This document shows positions 1 to 13,015 of a DNA stretch of 64,000 nt, piece after piece. The DNA is taken from NCBI RefSeq assembly GCF_003334405.1, contig NZ_QOWM01000005.1, one strand, 5' to 3'. The notes under the pieces were generated by a model, which was not told the DNA's origin, did no database searches, and saw only the letters and a list, made by a program, of their open reading frames with translations. The DNA is from Escherichia coli. GTDB taxonomy: Bacteria > Pseudomonadota > Gammaproteobacteria > Enterobacterales > Enterobacteriaceae. Positions within the stretch are counted from its first letter, which is position 1; every line of letters starts with the position of its first letter. Both the position numbers and the translations under genes were made by a program.

Positions 1-453
1 GAACTCGTTGATTTTGCCTGCACCTAACAGTTGGATCAGCTCCGCCAGCGCATTGTGATAAATATCGTAATTACGTTTGATCTCTGCCGCTGCGGCGGTG
101 CTCTGACGCGGGTCACGCGGCAACGCTTCGTAATCCGCCCAGTTTTTTTCCGCCTGTTTCAGCGAAATACTGGCACTCTCCATCAGCTCAGCAACGGTTG
201 AACCGCTACCAATATTATTCTGATCCATCATGTAGCGGATACCCGCGCGGTTGAGGGTGTTACGCGTCTGCAACAACGCGACCCAGCTGCCATTCAGCGT
301 GGATTGCTGCTGGCGAATGGTTTGTAAAACAGTGAAATTTTCTTTGTCATTCTTTAAGGCATTAAAGAACAGACCGCCTGATGTCAGTTGTAAAAGGCCA
401 AAAACGGCCAAAACCAGCAGTAAGCTGGTCACAATTTTGATACGTTTTAACAT
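1..453 (-). CDS. tsr: methyl-accepting chemotaxis protein I (serine sensor), N-terminal part; gene continues beyond window start
   Basis: Reverse translation from 453 gives [40 protein letters not shown]..., recognisable as the Tsr N-terminus; no stop before position 1. Confidence 0.85.
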
Positions 454-483
454 GGTTTCTCTTTCCTGTGGACCGATGCAAGA

Positions 484-510
484 TTTTCGGCCAGGAAAGG
501 AAAAACTTTA
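484..510 (-). promoter_or_regulatory. sigma-28 (FliA)-type promoter upstream of tsr
   Basis: On the minus strand reads TAAAGTTT-N11-GCCGAAAA, matching the class 3 flagellar promoter consensus TAAAGTTT-N11-GCCGATAA. Confidence 0.55.
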
Positions 511-601
511 TGAATATCCCGCGGAGATTACGCCGAGTAATTTTATTCACACTCTGAATTTAAAAAGCCATTATTTACATAAATTACTCACAATATAAAT
601 A

Positions 602-617
602 TGTGATATGAATCACA
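602..617. promoter_or_regulatory. CRP-like binding site in the tsr/btsT divergent intergenic region
   Basis: TGTGA-tatgaa-TCACA, perfect match to the CRP core consensus, embedded in a longer palindrome 597-623. Confidence 0.5.
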
Positions 618-681
618 TATTTATCGTCACTTAAACGACGCCTTTGCCGCTCAACCGCAAAACTGACCGCTTACATCCCTA

Positions 682-710
682 AAATAACCACTCAGTTATT
701 TACCTTACTT
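682..710 (+). promoter_or_regulatory. BtsR (YehT, LytTR-type) direct-repeat binding site upstream of btsT
   Basis: ACCGCTTA-N13-ACCACTCA, matching the recalled motif ACC(G/A)CT(C/T)A repeated with a 13 bp spacer. Confidence 0.5.
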
Positions 711-829
711 TACGCGCGCGTAACTCTGGCAACATCACTACAGGATAGCGGTCAATTTACCTCCTCAAACGCAACGCAAACCTAGAACGGCTTCGGCCAA
801 CTATTAATCAATACATGCCAGGTTTTACT

Positions 830-2980
830 ATGGATACTAAAAAGATATTCAAGCACATACCCTGGGTGATTCTCGGAATCATCGGTGCATTCTGCCTCGC
901 GGTAGTTGCATTACGTCGGGGGGAGCACGTCAGCGCCCTGTGGATCGTGGTCGCCTCTGTGTCGGTGTATCTGGTGGCGTATCGCTACTACAGTCTGTAC
1001 ATCGCCCAGAAGGTGATGAAACTCGACCCCACGCGCGCGACGCCTGCGGTTATTAACAACGACGGTTTGAACTACGTTCCGACCAACCGTTACGTGTTGT
1101 TTGGTCACCACTTCGCCGCTATCGCCGGTGCTGGTCCGCTGGTGGGTCCGGTTCTCGCCGCGCAGATGGGCTACCTGCCTGGCACGCTGTGGCTGCTGGC
1201 GGGGGTCGTGCTGGCCGGTGCGGTTCAGGACTTTATGGTGCTGTTTATCTCCTCTCGCCGTAATGGCGCATCTCTTGGTGAGATGATCAAAGAAGAGATG
1301 GGACCAGTACCGGGGACTATCGCGCTGTTTGGCTGTTTCTTAATCATGATCATCATCCTCGCCGTCCTGGCGCTGATTGTGGTTAAAGCCCTGGCCGAAA
1401 GTCCGTGGGGTGTCTTCACCGTTTGCTCAACCGTACCGATTGCGCTGTTTATGGGTATCTACATGCGCTTTATTCGTCCGGGGCGTGTGGGTGAAGTCTC
1501 TGTCATTGGTATCGTGCTGCTGGTTGCCTCTATCTACTTCGGTGGCGTGATTGCTCACGATCCGTACTGGGGTCCGGCACTGACCTTTAAAGACACCACC
1601 ATTACCTTCGCGCTGATTGGCTATGCGTTTGTTTCCGCACTGCTGCCAGTGTGGCTGATCCTCGCACCGCGCGACTATCTGGCAACCTTCCTGAAAATCG
1701 GCGTTATCGTCGGCCTGGCGCTGGGTATCGTGGTGCTGAACCCGGAACTGAAAATGCCTGCCATGACCCAGTACATTGACGGTACTGGCCCGCTGTGGAA
1801 AGGCGCTCTGTTCCCGTTCCTGTTCATCACCATCGCCTGTGGTGCGGTATCTGGCTTCCACGCGCTGATCTCTTCCGGTACGACGCCAAAACTGCTGGCT
1901 AATGAAACCGACGCGCGTTTCATCGGCTACGGCGCAATGCTGATGGAGTCCTTCGTGGCGATTATGGCGCTGGTTGCTGCGTCCATCATCGAACCGGGTC
2001 TTTACTTCGCGATGAACACCCCGCCTGCTGGCCTTGGCATCACCATGCCTAACCTGCATGAAATGGGGGGCGAGAACGCGCCGATCATCATGGCGCAGCT
2101 GAAAGACGTTACCGCACACGCGGCAGCGACCGTCAGCTCCTGGGGCTTCGTGATTTCGCCAGAGCAGATCCTGCAAACCGCGAAAGACATTGGTGAGCCT
2201 TCTGTCCTGAACCGTGCAGGTGGTGCGCCGACGCTGGCGGTAGGTATCGCTCACGTGTTCCACAAAGTGCTGCCGATGGCTGACATGGGCTTCTGGTATC
2301 ACTTCGGTATTCTGTTCGAAGCACTGTTCATCCTGACCGCGCTGGATGCGGGTACCCGTTCTGGCCGCTTTATGCTGCAAGACCTGCTGGGTAACTTCAT
2401 CCCGTTCCTGAAAAAAACCGACTCTCTGGTTGCCGGTATCATCGGTACTGCGGGCTGTGTGGGTCTGTGGGGCTACCTGCTGTATCAGGGCGTGGTCGAT
2501 CCGCTGGGCGGCGTTAAGAGCCTGTGGCCGCTGTTCGGTATTTCCAACCAGATGCTGGCAGCCGTAGCGCTGGTACTGGGCACCGTTGTGCTGATTAAGA
2601 TGAAGCGCACCCAATACATCTGGGTAACTGTTGTTCCGGCTGTATGGCTGCTTATCTGCACCACCTGGGCGCTGGGCCTGAAACTGTTCAGCACCAACCC
2701 GCAGATGGAAGGCTTCTTCTACATGGCAAGCCAGTACAAAGAGAAGATTGCTAACGGTACTGACCTGACGACGCAGCAGATTGCCAACATGAACCACATC
2801 GTTGTGAACAACTACACCAACGCAGGTCTGAGTATTCTGTTCCTGATTGTGGTGTACAGCATCATCTTCTACGGTTTCAAAACCTGGCTTGCGGTGCGTA
2901 ACAGCGACAAACGTACTGACAAAGAAACACCGTACGTTCCAATCCCGGAAGGCGGCGTGAAGATCTCTTCGCACCACTAA
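830..2980 (+). CDS. btsT: pyruvate/H+ symporter, CstA family
   Basis: ORF 815..2980; start placed at MDTKKIFKHIPWVILG to give 716 aa; polytopic membrane protein recognisable as YjiY/BtsT. Confidence 0.9.
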   Translation: MDTKKIFKHIPWVILGIIGAFCLAVVALRRGEHVSALWIVVASVSVYLVAYRYYSLYIAQKVMKLDPTRATPAVINNDGLNYVPTNRYVLFGHHFAAIAGAGPLVGPVLAAQMGYLPGTLWLLAGVVLAGAVQDFMVLFISSRRNGASLGEMIKEEMGPVPGTIALFGCFLIMIIILAVLALIVVKALAESPWGVFTVCSTVPIALFMGIYMRFIRPGRVGEVSVIGIVLLVASIYFGGVIAHDPYWGPALTFKDTTITFALIGYAFVSALLPVWLILAPRDYLATFLKIGVIVGLALGIVVLNPELKMPAMTQYIDGTGPLWKGALFPFLFITIACGAVSGFHALISSGTTPKLLANETDARFIGYGAMLMESFVAIMALVAASIIEPGLYFAMNTPPAGLGITMPNLHEMGGENAPIIMAQLKDVTAHAAATVSSWGFVISPEQILQTAKDIGEPSVLNRAGGAPTLAVGIAHVFHKVLPMADMGFWYHFGILFEALFILTALDAGTRSGRFMLQDLLGNFIPFLKKTDSLVAGIIGTAGCVGLWGYLLYQGVVDPLGGVKSLWPLFGISNQMLAAVALVLGTVVLIKMKRTQYIWVTVVPAVWLLICTTWALGLKLFSTNPQMEGFFYMASQYKEKIANGTDLTTQQIANMNHIVVNNYTNAGLSILFLIVVYSIIFYGFKTWLAVRNSDKRTDKETPYVPIPEGGVKISSHH

Positions 2981-2988
2981 CCGTGTTT

Positions 2989-3016
2989 AGCCCCGCTTCG
3001 GCGGGGCTTTGTTCTT
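2989..3016 (+). terminator. rho-independent terminator after btsT
   Basis: GC hairpin agccccgc-ttcg-gcggggct followed by a T-rich run. Confidence 0.55.
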
Positions 3017-3029
3017 ATCAGAGTGAACT

Positions 3030-3233
3030 ATGTTTGGTAACTTAGGACAGGCAAAAAAATATCTCGGCCAGGCGGCGAAGATGTTGATTGGCATTCCAGA
3101 CTACGACAACTACGTCGAGCATATGAAGACCAACCATCCCGACAAGCCGTACATGAGCTATGAAGAATTCTTCCGCGAACGCCAGAACGCACGCTACGGC
3201 GGCGATGGTAAAGGCGGTATGCGCTGTTGTTAA
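3030..3233 (+). CDS. yjiX: small conserved protein YjiX (DUF466 family)
   Basis: 67 aa ORF immediately downstream of btsT, same strand; conserved partner of cstA-like genes. Confidence 0.8.
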
Positions 3234-3243
3234 TGGAGAGAGC

Positions 3244-4200
3244 ATGAACCCGATTGCAGTTACCCTACTCACCGGTTTTTTAGGCGCGGGCAAAACCACC
3301 CTGCTGCGCCATATTCTTAACGAACAACACGGCTACAAGATTGCCGTGATTGAAAACGAATTCGGCGAAGTCTCCGTTGATGATCAACTGATTGGCGACC
3401 GCGCCACGCAGATCAAAACGCTGACCAACGGCTGCATCTGCTGTTCGCGCTCCAACGAGCTGGAAGACGCACTACTCGACCTGCTGGATAATCTCGACAA
3501 GGGCAATATTCAGTTCGACCGTCTGGTCATTGAATGCACCGGCATGGCCGATCCCGGCCCGATTATTCAGACCTTTTTCTCCCATGAGATTTTATGCCAG
3601 CGCTACCTGCTGGACGGCGTGATTGCGCTGGTGGATGCGGTACATGCCGATGAGCAGATGAACCAGTTCACCATCGCCCAGTCCCAGGTTGGCTACGCCG
3701 ACCGTATTCTGCTGACGAAAACCGACGTCGCAGGCGAAGCAGAGAAACTGCGTGAACGCCTGGCGCGCATCAACGCCCGCGCACCGGTCTACACCGTTAC
3801 CCACGGCGATATCGACCTGGGCCTTCTGTTCAACACCAACGGTTTTATGCTGGAAGAAAACGTCGTCAGCACCAAACCGCGTTTCCACTTTATCACGGAC
3901 AAACAAAACGATATTTCGTCGATTGTGGTGGAACTGGATTACCCGGTAGATATCAGCGAAGTTTCCCGGGTGATGGAAAACCTGCTGCTGGAGTCGGCGG
4001 ATAAACTACTGCGTTACAAAGGGATGCTATGGATTGACGGCGAACCTAACCGCCTGCTATTCCAGGGCGTCCAACGCCTCTACAGCGCCGACTGGGACCG
4101 CCCGTGGGGCGATGAAAAACCGCATAGCACGATGGTGTTTATCGGGATTCAGTTGCCGGAGGAAGAGATTCGGGCAGCGTTTGCGGGGTTGAGGAAGTAA
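3244..4200 (+). CDS. yjiA: COG0523/CobW-family GTPase (metal-binding)
   Basis: ORF 3160..4200; start at MNPIAVTLLTGFLGAGKTT (Walker A GAGKTT); CICC metal-binding motif. Confidence 0.9.
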   Translation: MNPIAVTLLTGFLGAGKTTLLRHILNEQHGYKIAVIENEFGEVSVDDQLIGDRATQIKTLTNGCICCSRSNELEDALLDLLDNLDKGNIQFDRLVIECTGMADPGPIIQTFFSHEILCQRYLLDGVIALVDAVHADEQMNQFTIAQSQVGYADRILLTKTDVAGEAEKLRERLARINARAPVYTVTHGDIDLGLLFNTNGFMLEENVVSTKPRFHFITDKQNDISSIVVELDYPVDISEVSRVMENLLLESADKLLRYKGMLWIDGEPNRLLFQGVQRLYSADWDRPWGDEKPHSTMVFIGIQLPEEEIRAAFAGLRK

Positions 4201-4210
4201 TTTTGGATGA

Positions 4211-4245
4211 TGGCCGCCATGTGGCGGCCTGAATTATTTTTTGTT
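4211..4245. terminator. hairpin plus T-tract between convergent yjiA and brnA
   Basis: ggccgccatgtggcggcc inverted repeat followed by ttattttttg. Confidence 0.45.
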
Positions 4246-4536
4246 CTGATCGCGCAGCATCGCTTCACGTAAAATTGCGTTCAGGCGAGTTTGATAGCCT
4301 TTACCTGGTCGCTTCAACCATTCCATCACATCAGCATCAATACGCACCGAAGCCTGAGTTTTCAATGGCCGATAAAACTTACCGCGTTCGGCGTTAGACC
4401 ATTGCTCATCGCTGGAAGGTGGGATATCACTGTAATCAATATCTTCGTCGGATTTATTCGCCAGCGCCTTCAGTTCGGCCTCATGCTGCACATCGAGTGT
4501 AGAGGAGGTCCCTCGTTTATGTTTAACCATGCTCAT
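4234..4536 (-). CDS. BrnA-like antitoxin (DUF4415-type)
   Basis: ORF 4234..4623 trimmed to MSMVKHKRG...; start overlaps the stop of the upstream toxin reading frame, typical toxin-antitoxin coupling. Confidence 0.65.
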   Translation of the reverse strand: MSMVKHKRGTSSTLDVQHEAELKALANKSDEDIDYSDIPPSSDEQWSNAERGKFYRPLKTQASVRIDADVMEWLKRPGKGYQTRLNAILREAMLRDQNKK

Positions 4537-4808
4537 AGCGATTCCTCTCTTTACGATCTGCTTTTCGTGCACTGATGATTCGAATAATTTCATTTCCGCT
4601 TTCGAAACGGATGGTATGCGCAACCAGAATAACCACGATGCCGTAATGTCTGCCAGCGATACTCACCGTTTTCTATGCGTTCTTGCTGTGACAAATGTTG
4701 TGGATCATCAAACAATAACACCGCATCTTCAAAGCGGATGCCATGTTTCACCCGATTACTTTTGGCCTTGTTTTCATCCCATTCAAACTCCATTGGCATA
4801 ATTGCCAT
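4523..4808 (-). pseudogene. BrnT-like toxin (DUF497 family) interrupted by a +1 frameshift
   Basis: N-terminal frame (ORF 4590..4826) gives MEFEWDENKAKSNRVKHGIRFEDA...WQTLRH then runs out of frame; the C-terminal part GIVVILVAHTIRFESGNEIIRIISARKADRKERNRYEHG is in another frame ending at 4523. Confidence 0.55.
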
Positions 4809-4997
4809 CCCTAATTGTATATACAAAAATGTATCTACAATTATTCTGCAATTATAGCGTTGATGTTGGAAATAGCATCACGTTTCGAATAATCAACCAT
4901 GAAATTGACAATGAGTAAGTTGGACTTGATTCATCCAATAGAATTTCTCGCCTGACATGGCACACTAAACACCTCGCTGTCGGGTAATGACTCCAAC

Positions 4998-5501
4998 TTA
5001 CTGATAGTGTTTTATGTTCAGATAATGCCCGATGACCTTGTCATGCAGCTCCACCGATTTTGAGAACGACAGTGACTTCCGTCCCAGCCTTGCCAGATGT
5101 TGTCTCAGATTCAGATTATGTCGCTCAATGCGCTGAGTGTAACGCTTGCTGATAACGTGCAGCTTTCCCTTCAGGCGTGATTCATACAGCGGCCAGCCAT
5201 CCGTCATCTATACCACGACCTCAAAGGCCGACAGCAGGCTCAGAAGACGTTCCAGTGTGGCCAGAGTGCGTTCACCGAAGACGTGCGCCACAACCGTCCT
5301 CCGTATCCTGTCATACGCGTAAAACAGCCAGCGCTGACGTGATTTAGCACCGACGTAGCCCCACTGTTCGTCCATTTCAGCGCAGACAATCACATCACTG
5401 CCCGGTTGTATGCGCGAGGTTACCGACTGCGGCCTGAGTTTTTTAAGTGACGTAAAACCGTGTTGAGGCCAACGCCCATAATGCGTGCACTGGCGCGACA
5501 T
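4998..5501 (-). pseudogene. insB: IS1 insB reading frame with an internal in-frame stop
   Basis: ORF track splits it into 5208..5501 (97 aa) and 4998..5207 (69 aa) in the same frame, separated by a TAG codon directly followed by ATG. Confidence 0.55.
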
Positions 5502-5695
5502 CCGACGCCATTCATGGCCATATCAATGATTTTCTGGTGCGTACCGGGCTGAGAGGCGGTGTAAGTGAACTGTAGTTGCCATGTTTTACGGCAATGAGAG
5601 CAGAGATAGCGCTGATGTCCGGCAGTGCTTTTGCCGTTACGCACCACGCCTTCAGTAGCGGAGCAGGAAGGACATCTGATGGAAATGGAAGCCAC
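5420..5695 (-). CDS. insA: IS1 InsA
   Basis: 91 aa [43 protein letters not shown]... Confidence 0.9.
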
Positions 5696-5751
5696 GCAAG
5701 CACCTTAAAATCACCATCATACACTAAATCAGTAAGTTGGCAGCATTACCC

Positions 5752-5847
5752 GGATTCCATAATGATTCCACGCCCCGTTATGACAAATCTGCCGCCGATC
5801 TTGCCTGGCAAAGGACACTGAAATGGTTCGATAAATATCTCTCCTGA
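5752..5847 (+). pseudogene. 3' remnant of a dienelactone-hydrolase-like gene truncated by IS1
   Basis: Frame directly abutting the IS1 end reads [35 protein letters not shown], resembling the C-terminus of DLH-family hydrolases; only 31 codons. Confidence 0.3.
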
Positions 5848-5992
5848 TAGGTTTATCTCTTACGGGATTACGTCTTAAACAAGCATGAAAAAATAGCGTG
5901 CGCAAAAGTCGTTCTTTGCCTAAAATATCGCTATATATGGCGATATATAGCGAATAAAGTGAACGATGAATAACCATTTTGGTAAAGGCTTA

Positions 5993-7225
5993 ATGGCGGG
6001 ATTAAAAGCAACGCATGCCGCCACGCTGTTTTTCCCGATGGAGTTGATTTTGTATGATTTTGCCGCGTACCTGTCGACGGACCTGATTCAGCCGGGGATC
6101 ATTAATGTGGTCCGTGATTTTAATGCCGATGTCAGTCTGGCCCCGGCAGCCGTCAGTCTCTATCTCGCGGGCGGTATGGCGTTACAGTGGCTGCTGGGGC
6201 CGCTTTCCGACAGGATTGGCCGCAGGCCGGTGCTGATTACCGGGGCGCTAATATTTACCCTTGCCTGCGCTGCGACAATGTTCACAACGTCTATGACACA
6301 GTTTCTTATCGCGCGTGCAATTCAGGGCACCAGTATCTGTTTTATTGCCACCGTTGGTTATGTCACGGTGCAGGAGGCGTTCGGCCAGACAAAAGGGATC
6401 AGGTTGATGGCGATTATCACCTCCATCGTACTGATTGCGCCGATTATTGGCCCGCTTTCCGGCGCAGCTCTGATGCACTTTGTGCACTGGAAAGTCCTTT
6501 TTGCCATCATTGCGGTTATGGGGTTTATCTCATTTGTTGGCTTACTGCTGGCGATGCCAGAGACGGTGAAGCGCGGCGCGGTTCCATTTAGCGCCAAAAG
6601 CGTCTTGCGCGATTTTCGTAATGTCTTTTGCAATCGGCTGTTCCTCTTTGGCGCAGCAACCATCTCTTTAAGCTATATCCCAATGATGAGTTGGGTGGCT
6701 GTCTCGCCGGTGATCCTGATCGACGCGGGCGGCTTAACAACTTCGCAGTTCGCCTGGACACAGGTTCCGGTGTTCGGCGCGGTGATTGTCGCGAATGCCA
6801 TCGTGGCGCGTTTCGTTAAAGATCCAACCGAACCGCGCTTCATCTGGCGTGCCGTACCCATTCAACTGGTCGGCCTCGCGCTGTTGATTATCGGCAATCT
6901 GCTGTCACCGCACGTCTGGCTGTGGTCGGTGCTGGGCACCAGTTTGTATGCTTTCGGGATTGGTTTGATCTTCCCGACCTTATTCCGCTTTACGCTTTTT
7001 TCCAATAACTTACCGAAAGGGACCGTCTCCGCATCGCTGAATATGGTGATCCTGATGGTGATGTCTGTCTCGGTCGAAATCGGCCGCTGGCTGTGGTTTA
7101 ACGGCGGTCGCTTGCCGTTTCATCTGTTAGCCGTCGTGGCGGGCGTTATCGTCGTTTTCACCCTGGCAGGATTGCTTAATCGCGTGCGCCAACATCAGGC
7201 TGCCGAGCTGGCGGAGGAGCGGTGA
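5993..7225 (+). CDS. mdtM: MFS multidrug efflux transporter
   Basis: ORF 5966..7225; 12-TMS MFS protein recognisable as MdtM (YjiO); start chosen to give 410 aa. Confidence 0.85.
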
Positions 7226-7265
7226 TTTTTGCGCGATCCTGCCGTCAGGCTCTATTCTTAACGTT

Positions 7266-8546
7266 ATGAATAAACTCATTGAACTCAGACGCGCCAAAAT
7301 GTTGGCGCTCTCTTTACTGCTTATCGCCGCTGCTACCTTTGTCGTTACGCTGTTTTTGCCGCCCAATTTTTGGGTGAGCGGCGTGAAGGCGATTGCTGAA
7401 GCGGCGATGGTCGGCGCGCTGGCGGACTGGTTTGCGGTGGTGGCGCTGTTTCGCCGCGTGCCGATTCCGATCATTTCTCGTCATACGGCGATTATCCCGC
7501 GTAATAAAGACCGGATTGGCGAAAATCTCGGCCAGTTCGTGCAGGAAAAATTTCTCGATACCCAGTCGCTGGTGGCATTGATTCGACGTCACGAACCGGC
7601 GTTGTTGATTGGCAACTGGTTTAGTCAGCCGGAGAACGCCCGCCGCGTTGGTCAGCATCTGTTGCAGATCATGAGCGGTTTTCTTGAACTGACCGATGAT
7701 GCGCGTATTCAGCGCCTGCTTAAGCGCGCGGTCCATCGGGCGATTGATAAGGTCGATCTTTCCGGCACCAGTGCGTTGATGCTGGAGAGTATGACCAAAA
7801 ACAATCGTCATCAGGTGCTGCTGGATACGCTGATCGCACAGTTGATCGCCCTTCTCCAGCGCGATAAATCGCGCAAGTTTATTGCCCAGCAAATTGTTCG
7901 CTGGCTGGAGAGCGAGCATCCGCTGAAAGCCAAAATTTTGCCTACTGAATGGCTGGGCGAACATAGCGCGGAGTTGGTTTCTGACGCGGTGAATTCTTTG
8001 CTTGATGATATCAGCCGCGATCGTGCGCATCAGATCCGCCATGCATTTGATCGCGCCACCTTTGCCCTGATCGACAAGTTGAAAAACGATCCGGAAATGG
8101 CAGCGCGAGCCGATGCCGTAAAAAGTTATCTGAAAGAAGATGAAGCTTTTAACCGCTATCTCAGTGAATTGTGGGGGGATTTACGGGAATGGCTGAAAGC
8201 GGATATCAACAGTGAAGATTCTCGTGTGAAAGAACGTATCGCGCGGGCGGGTCAATGGTTTGGCGAAACGTTAATTGCCGATGATGCCTTGCGGGCATCG
8301 TTAAATGGTCACCTGGAACAAGCCGCGCACCGCGTCGCGCCTGAGTTTTCCGCATTCCTGACGCGCCACATCAGCGATACAGTAAAAAGCTGGGATGCTC
8401 GGGATATGTCGCGGCAAATCGAGTTAAATATCGGCAAAGATCTGCAGTTTATCCGTGTCAACGGTACGCTGGTTGGCGGTTGTATTGGGCTAATTTTATA
8501 TTTGTTGTCGCAGCTCCCGGCCTTGTTCCCCCTCAGCAATTTTTAG
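7266..8546 (+). CDS. yjiN: DUF445-family inner membrane protein
   Basis: 426 aa ORF, conserved neighbour of mdtM. Confidence 0.8.
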
Positions 8547-8661
8547 AAATCCATGAAAAACTAAGTGGCTAACCGCGAGAGAGATCAAATAAACCACACT
8601 AAAAGAATGGTAATAATGTGGCCTCTTTTCATTATCTCCCGTGGTACGGGGAAGGAAAATC

Positions 8662-11769
<3,108 letters not shown>

Positions 11770-11836
11770 CAGGCTGGCATATTTCACCTTTTTGTTATTA
11801 ACTTGTTAACAACAAAAATGACATACAAGGTTAAAC

Positions 11837-13015
11837 ATGCCTTCGTCCTCGCATCCCGTAGAACGCTTTTCTTTCAGCACCGCGCTTTTCGGGATGCTGG
11901 TTCTGACCTTAGGTATGGGATTAGGTCGCTTCCTTTATACGCCTATGTTGCCCGTCATGATGGCGGAAGGGGCGTTTTCATTTAGCCAGCTCTCGTGGAT
12001 TGCCAGCGGCAACTATGCGGGGTATCTGGCTGGCAGTCTGCTATTTTCGTTTGGCGCATTTCACCAGCCGTCGCGCCTGCGCCCATTTCTGTTGGTTTCT
12101 GCCCTGGCGAGCGGGTTGTTGATCCTCGCAATGGCATGGTTGCCGCCATTTATTCTGGTGTTATTGATTCGCTTCCTGGCGGGTGTCGCCAGCGCCGGTA
12201 TGCTGATTTTTGGTTCGACGCTGATTATGCAGCACACGCGCCATCCTTTTGTGCTGGCAGCTTTGTTTTCTGGCGTTGGCATTGGCATTGCACTGGGCAA
12301 CGAATATGTTCTGGCAGGCCTGCATTTTGCCTTCTCCTCGCAAACGTTATGGCAAGGCGCCGGGGCGCTTTCTGGCATGATGCTGATTGCACTTACGCTT
12401 TTAATGCCCTCGAAAAAACACGCCATCGCACCAATGCCATTGGCAAAAACGGAGCAACAGATAATGAGCTGGTGGTTACTGGCTATTCTGTACGGCCTGG
12501 CGGGATTTGGTTATATCATCGTCGCGACTTACCTGCCGCTCATGGCGAAAGATGCAGGCTCACCATTGTTAACCGCCCATCTCTGGACGTTAGTCGGCTT
12601 ATCAATTGTGCCAGGCTGCTTTGGCTGGCTATGGGCAGCAAAACGTTGGGGGGCTTTGCCTTGCCTGACGGCGAATTTGCTGGTGCAGGCTATCAGTGTG
12701 CTGCTTACTCTCGCCAGCGACTCTCCTCTCTTGCTTATCATTAGTAGTATCGGTTTTGGCGGTACCTTTATGGGCACGACATCTCTGGTGATGACTATCG
12801 CCCGCCAACTGAGCGTTCCGGGAAATCTCAATCTTTTAGGCTTTGTGACGCTCATTTACGGCATTGGACAAATCCTCGGCCCGGCGCTGACCAGTATGCT
12901 CGGCAATGGAACATCGGCGCTTGCCAGCGCCACTCTCTGCGGCGCGGCGGCGTTGTTTATTGCTGCGCTTATCAGCACAGTGCAATTATTTAAGCTACAA
13001 GTGGTCACTTCATGA
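11837..13015 (+). CDS. yjiJ: MFS-type transporter (DUF1228)
   Basis: 392 aa hydrophobic ORF. Confidence 0.8.

Follow-up and report, generated by a model that had tools for sequence, protein, structure and literature searches.

Whether a toxin-antitoxin pair is still alive or has lost its toxin to a frameshift is the question raised by a locus downstream of yjiA in the window, by which is meant the whole 64,000-nucleotide stretch of Escherichia coli DNA that was analysed. A first-pass annotation had described a BrnT/BrnA-like pair at this place, with an intact antitoxin and a toxin split between two frames, and had offered two explanations, a toxin-inactivated module or a sequencing error in a live one. 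The comparisons reported here make it very probable that the locus is a chromosomal BrnT/BrnA type II toxin-antitoxin operon which has been decaying since an 11-bp deletion in brnT. It is an ordinary decaying pair, with nothing novel about it, and the allele of the window is already known, as public genomes annotate the same sequence as a frameshifted BrnT pseudogene.

The locus, its two genes and the brnT lesion

The window is a piece of E. coli chromosome in which the gene order is btsT-yjiX-yjiA, followed by brnA-brnT, IS1 and mdtM. The genes btsT (815-2980) and yjiX (3030-3233), together with yjiA, which ends at 4200, are encoded on the plus strand, while brnT and brnA lie on the minus strand, downstream of and convergent with yjiA. 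Between the convergent yjiA and brnA, a terminator scan called a GC-rich hairpin on the plus strand (GGCCGCCATGTGGCGGCC, 4212..4229), which is likely to serve as the terminator for both genes; being a perfect palindrome, it would form a hairpin on the minus strand too. An Rfam scan of the whole window returned no match, so that no known RNA element accounts for the region. On the other side of the pair, 183 bp upstream of brnT and outside the module, an IS1 element (4983..5750, minus strand) has been recognised by a 768-bp match to another IS1 copy. Its transposase frame contains an internal stop at 5208-5210 according to the list of open reading frames, and the same copy is annotated with an internal stop in strains EC96, MRE162 and Eco889 (in the first two as “IS1 family transposase; internal stop”). 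A 516-codon open reading frame antisense to btsT (1427-2977, minus strand) was also seen, and is in all likelihood a fortuitous frame on the strand opposite a genuine gene.

The interval from yjiA to mdtM (4200-5966) holds only brnTA, IS1 and one gene fragment in the window. The fragment, at 5737-5847 in the IS1-mdtM interval, is all that is left of a gene of the dienelactone hydrolase family, and the matching genomes have it annotated as a partial pseudogene. The occupants of this position differ among strains: in other E. coli, brnT is abutted by a restriction endonuclease and a type I restriction-modification M subunit (loci L003 and L004) or by Fic and GmrSD/DUF1524 genes (loci L005 and L006), and K-12 carries mrr-hsd-mcrBC in this region. 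The brnTA pair is placed at the yjiA edge of this hypervariable restriction/defence region. As PADLOC-DB 2.0 contains no family matching either protein at E <= 0.01, there is no ground for classing the pair with the catalogued defence systems.

The layout of the pair is that of a type II toxin-antitoxin system, namely two small, co-oriented and overlapping genes belonging to cognate toxin and antitoxin families. The antitoxin gene, brnA (4536..4234, minus strand), is an uninterrupted reading frame of 100 amino acids plus a stop, identical to RefSeq WP_000063156.1, and its product matches the full length of the Pfam profile PF14384 BrnA_antitoxin (1-68/68, E 3.1e-17, residues 37-93). Identical loci carry the RefSeq annotation “BrnA antitoxin family protein” for this gene. 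Residues 14-57 of BrnA align to chain B, the antitoxin, of the solved complex PDB 7VD7 (E 1.4e-16), an alignment that marks them as the putative toxin-binding segment. When the 11 bp missing from brnT are restored, the toxin becomes the 95-residue WP_001297643.1, which covers all of Pfam PF04365 BrnT_toxin (formerly DUF497; 1-77/77, E 4.7e-24). The fold of BrnT is settled, since residues 2-95 align to the toxin chain of 7VD7 with about 84% identity, as counted from the alignment; the 7VD7 toxin is full length and of different sequence, and its depositors label the two chains only “toxin” and “antitoxin”. A search of NCBIfam gave no match for the antitoxin or for either form of the toxin, intact or truncated. 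The description of a BrnT/BrnA-like pair downstream of yjiA with an intact antitoxin is therefore upheld by the Pfam and 7VD7 matches, as is that of a BrnA-like frame overlapping the DUF497 frame, the overlap being 14 bp (4523-4536).

The toxin gene spans 4523..4799 on the minus strand and measures 277 bp, compared with 288 bp in the intact WP_001297643.1 allele. The window was aligned with an intact copy from strain Eco889 and with an identical copy from strain SCU-172; this comparison with intact brnT, which had been proposed as a check, showed that a single 11-bp deletion separates the window from the intact allele and that the two are otherwise 100% identical over 701/712 bp. The missing 11 bp of the coding strand, ATCGGCCTGGT, fall between bases 4646 and 4647 (4646..4647) and correspond to the whole of codons 52-54 together with two of the three bases of codon 55, for a net shift of one frame. 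From the ATG at 4799 (MPMEFEWDENK...), translation stays in frame through native codons 1-51 (MPMEF...YRWQT; 4647..4799, minus strand), continues into the out-of-frame tail LRHRGYSGCAYHPFRKRK and reaches a premature TGA at 4592-4590 after 69 codons (tail and stop, 4590..4646, minus strand, from the translation and the list of open reading frames). The encoded product consists of 51 native and 18 unrelated residues, with 44 of the 95 native residues (52-95) lost. The remnant of codons 56-95 with its stop (4523..4645, minus strand) stands in a frame that is not reached from the start codon, and is covered by an open reading frame of 47 codons at 4523..4666 with a GTG start at 4666.

These coordinates change part of the earlier description, in which the two halves of the toxin were offset by one base around 4600. 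The two frames are real and the one-base offset is the net result of losing 11 bp, but the junction is at 4647|4646; position ~4600 marks the end of the shifted frame, some 50 bases further downstream. Alignment with the intact allele places no homopolymer or indel at 4595-4605, where one had been suspected, and only the TGA of the shifted frame is to be found there. The deletion site 4647|4646 has no homopolymer either, and by eye there is no microhomology or repeat longer than one base at the ends of the deletion. The end of the module, which had been set at 4808, must likewise be moved: that position is an upstream in-frame ATG, and the RefSeq start of brnT is the base equivalent to 4799.

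Distribution and descent of the deletion

The spread of the lesion was followed in 5,426 complete E. coli genomes, where a toxin-region search found the brnTA locus in 2,112 and no such locus in 3,314. The toxin region is full length in 1,781 of the 2,112 locus-bearing genomes and partial in the other 331. Among the full-length loci, 24 have the identical 11-bp deletion and span 331 bases, as against 342 bases for the other 1,757. These carriers were isolated on several continents, from human, pig, cattle, dog and frog hosts as well as from river water and wastewater, and were sequenced in different laboratories. RefSeq describes the gene as “BrnT family toxin, frameshifted” in all 11 carriers whose annotation was read, and every non-deleted copy that was read or seen annotated has a single frame. 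The single-frame brnT is the common form and, judged by these counts, likely the ancestral one. The toxin region of SCU-172, LHM10-1, STEC383, LSN03-016011/A and CE0021a is identical to that of the window over 331 bp, deletion included. Two carriers, QDFD216 (dog, China) and 50EVAW (human, Singapore), combine the brnT deletion with a GAA to TAA change in codon 31 of brnA (E31*; L015:1885-1887, and the same site in L016), the 68 codons that are left being newly annotated as BrnA in RefSeq. The nonsense mutation cuts through the BrnA segment 14-57 that aligns to the 7VD7 antitoxin chain. A third carrier, ST12468, has the substitution N86H in BrnA.

Counts of SNPs per segment indicate that the deletion is identical by descent on one haplotype. 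Over positions 1-4990, from the end of tsr to brnT, the window differs by 1-5 SNPs from six of the seven carriers compared (1 SNP from STEC383), the seventh, EC6622, being recombinant on the btsT side. The genomes with the frameshifted allele share the haplotype of the window from tsr to brnT, and the closest genomes with an intact allele, EC96 and MRE162, are 9-10 SNPs and the deletion away. The opposite holds on the IS1 and mdtM side, where the window is 0 and 2-5 SNPs, respectively, from EC96 and MRE162, whereas it has a different haplotype from the other carriers (97.2% identity, as against 99.9% or more). Those carriers have an intact IS1 at the same site, with differences from the window copy at 5209, 5250 and 5541. 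By its SNP pattern, the window is a recombinant, with the carrier haplotype on the left and the haplotype of intact-brnT genomes on the right. The matching right side takes in IS1 and mdtM-yjiN-yjiM-yjiL, and the crossover falls in the interval 4677-5209, as judged over positions 1-12000. The combination of left and right haplotypes found in the window occurs in no complete RefSeq genome among the best 45 matches. This recombinant make-up accounts for the best 12-kb matches all having intact brnT. That observation had raised the idea of a recurrent origin of the deletion, an idea which the per-segment SNP counts led us to reject. The replacement of its flanks by recombination also suggests that the deletion is old enough for such an exchange to have taken place.

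The intact pair is found at the same locus in Eco889, EC96 and MRE162, next to yjiA on one side and to IS1 and mdtM on the other. Set beside this intact E. coli brnTA (WP_001297643.1 and WP_000063156.1), the window has an identical brnA and a brnT region that is 100% identical except for the deletion; it differs in lacking 11 bp of brnT, within codons 52-55, by which the toxin frame is broken.

Toxin inactivation, rival readings and the fate of brnA

As encoded, the product of brnT matches PF04365 over model positions 1-47 of 77 only, the last 30 of the 77 having been lost. According to a review, the ribonuclease activity of the Brucella toxin needs D6, E7, K9, R41 and E78 (PMC5086665), and in the alignment to Brucella BrnT (PDB 3U97) these residues correspond to D8, E9, K11, R48 and E88 of the E. 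coli protein. The first four are kept in frame. The fifth, E88, the counterpart of the Brucella catalytic glutamate E78, lies past the frameshift in the untranslated remnant, which leaves the residue set incomplete. On the evidence of its sequence, brnT of the window is a pseudogene of a BrnT family member and not a working member. The loss of residues 52-95, including the counterpart of the catalytic glutamate, indirectly indicates that the toxin is dead in this lineage. Beside an active BrnT, cells that lose brnA should die or be strongly selected against, and the occurrence of brnA E31* in two deletion carriers suggests both that the toxin is dead and that the antitoxin has become dispensable. 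With a broken toxin frame and two isolates carrying E31*, the locus does not behave as a pair in which both partners function and loss of the antitoxin is harmful. Two points weigh against a dead toxin. The 51-residue fragment keeps four of the five residues that have been linked to catalysis, and the brnA E31* allele leaves a C-terminal frame of 68 residues, still called BrnA in RefSeq, from which slight neutralisation would be possible.

The 11-bp deletion is not the only lesion of its kind. A 158-bp deletion inside brnT was detected in 222 genomes, and in 109 genomes a 290-bp deletion by which the promoter region is lost along with three quarters of brnT, counted from the 5' end; counting was done with 50-base junction probes, for which an intact allele cannot pass the E-value cut-off. 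Together these two deletions explain all 331 partial loci, and examples are provided by L003:1602-1703, L004:1591-1692, L005:2501-2563 and the same site in L006. In each of the four examples read, brnA is intact, and the four differ among themselves by 15 synonymous and 5 non-synonymous codon changes. A dead toxin thus stands beside brnA in at least 355 of the 2,112 locus-bearing genomes (17%), through three independent deletions. Decay that begins with the toxin is to be expected, since a cell cannot survive without the antitoxin for as long as the toxin is active. The locus offers a tidy natural example of this order, the toxin going first and the antitoxin once it is dispensable: brnT has been killed by deletion three times independently within E. 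coli, and in one of these deletion lineages brnA has since acquired a nonsense mutation.

Against this account, three other explanations have to be weighed. In the first, sequencing or assembly introduced the frameshift and the module is alive in the organism; a sequencing error was half of the original proposal, and indel errors are indeed common in some long-read assemblies. The loss here is one of 11 bp in non-repetitive sequence and not a homopolymer slip, the identical allele recurs with a shared SNP haplotype in 24 independently sequenced complete genomes, and two carriers have a brnA nonsense mutation as well. An error has therefore next to no probability as the explanation, and there is very little chance that resequencing would bring back a single frame. 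The other half of the proposal, a toxin-inactivated module, is the one borne out by the 24 genomes, their single haplotype and the two E31* alleles. It had also been stated that an ancestral two-frame structure among homologues would overturn the idea of a frameshifted toxin. Such a structure might represent a programmed frameshift or a toxin made as two peptides, and the 47-codon frame with a GTG start at 4666 makes a second peptide formally possible. This is hardly credible, however, given that 1,757 of the 1,781 full-length loci are without the deletion, that the intact examples read or annotated and the related solved structure encode one frame (95 residues in E. coli), and that the sole difference from the intact form is a deletion which leaves residues 52-55 missing. 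No slippery site is evident by eye at the junction.

The remaining alternative accepts that the toxin is dead and holds that its loss was favoured and not neutral, brnA being maintained by selection as a working orphan, either for anti-addiction, e.g., disarming BrnT brought in by plasmids or phages, or as a transcription factor. If true, it would account for the repeated loss of brnT, but not of brnA, through no fewer than three independent deletions at the yjiA edge (in 355 of the 2,112 genomes), and the excess of synonymous over non-synonymous changes in the four intact brnA genes beside larger deletions points in the same direction. BrnTA pairs are also common on plasmids, with 766 matching plasmid records, and both roles have been discussed for orphan antitoxins (PMC7192599). 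Within the 24 carriers, brnA is intact in 22, which fits recent neutrality and would equally fit selection to keep it, and to that extent it counts against a drifting relic. On the other hand, losing the toxin first is what neutral decay predicts, the haplotype of the 11-bp deletion has already acquired E31* in two genomes and N86H in one, and the true plasmid relatives are at most 72% identical, a level reached by the BrnT of 5.4-kb Klebsiella/Citrobacter plasmids; nor does any PADLOC model match the pair. A selected orphan is accordingly considered improbable, and simple decay of the operon is the preferred reading. On a small scale, the locus could still help to test whether or not selection maintains orphan antitoxins. 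Otherwise its importance hardly goes past annotation: the correct entry is a pseudogene of brnT, and counts of strains with a live BrnTA module should leave this one out.

Predicted regulation and related systems

The original study of the Brucella abortus BrnT/BrnA pair is reportedly that of Heaton et al. 2012. As two later sources describe it, the toxin of Brucella BrnTA is a small RelE-like ribonuclease, and the antitoxin represses the operon by means of the ribbon-helix-helix domain at its C-terminus (PMC5086665, PMC11980606). The E. coli pair resembles it in being a toxin-first bicistronic operon with a PF04365 toxin and a PF14384 antitoxin bearing a C-terminal ribbon-helix-helix (PMC5086665, PMC11980606). 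The similarity between the two toxins themselves is distant (PDB 3U97, E 1.6e-4), and the copy in the window differs further in being inactivated.

An inverted repeat of 14 nt, with 13 of 14 positions complementary and a 4-nt spacer, is located at 4812..4843, just upstream of the ribosome site of brnT. Because BrnA autoregulates in Brucella (PMC5086665, PMC11980606), this repeat is a plausible candidate for the BrnA operator. A sigma-70 consensus scan detected no minus-strand promoter upstream of brnT. By analogy with the Brucella system, the intact form may be pictured as an operon in which one promoter upstream of 4799 would drive brnT and then brnA. Intact BrnT would be a small ribonuclease of RelE-like type, blocking translation; BrnA would wrap the toxin with its N-terminal half, while its C-terminal ribbon-helix-helix would repress the operon, probably at 4812-4843. 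In the lineage of this strain, the 11-bp deletion within codons 52-55 shifted the frame, leaving the toxin dead. The antitoxin is probably still made, with nothing left to neutralise, and the relic would be free to decay. A Shine-Dalgarno-like motif, GAGAGGA, can be read from the sequence at 4543..4549 (minus strand), 6 nt before the brnA ATG, and is a putative ribosome-binding site. With such a motif of its own, brnA would not require translational coupling to brnT, and it is probably still translated even though ribosomes would now leave brnT 53 bases upstream.

Comparable remains have been reported in Klebsiella pneumoniae populations, in which orphan antitoxins beside disrupted or missing toxins are abundant in their original genomic context (PMC7192599). 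The degraded pairs of K. pneumoniae concern another species and another toxin family, and the present locus is distinguished by a lesion and a descent that can be traced base by base.

A few records labelled as E. coli plasmids, two of them unusually large at 655 and 834 kb, carry brnT sequences close to the chromosomal allele. The match is 100% identical on NZ_LT985269.1 (22 kb) and on AP026530.1 / NZ_CP128951.1 (655 kb), and 95% identical on CP054241.1 (834 kb). The 22-kb and 655-kb records look chromosomal in content, and all of these replicons may be chromosome-derived or mislabelled.
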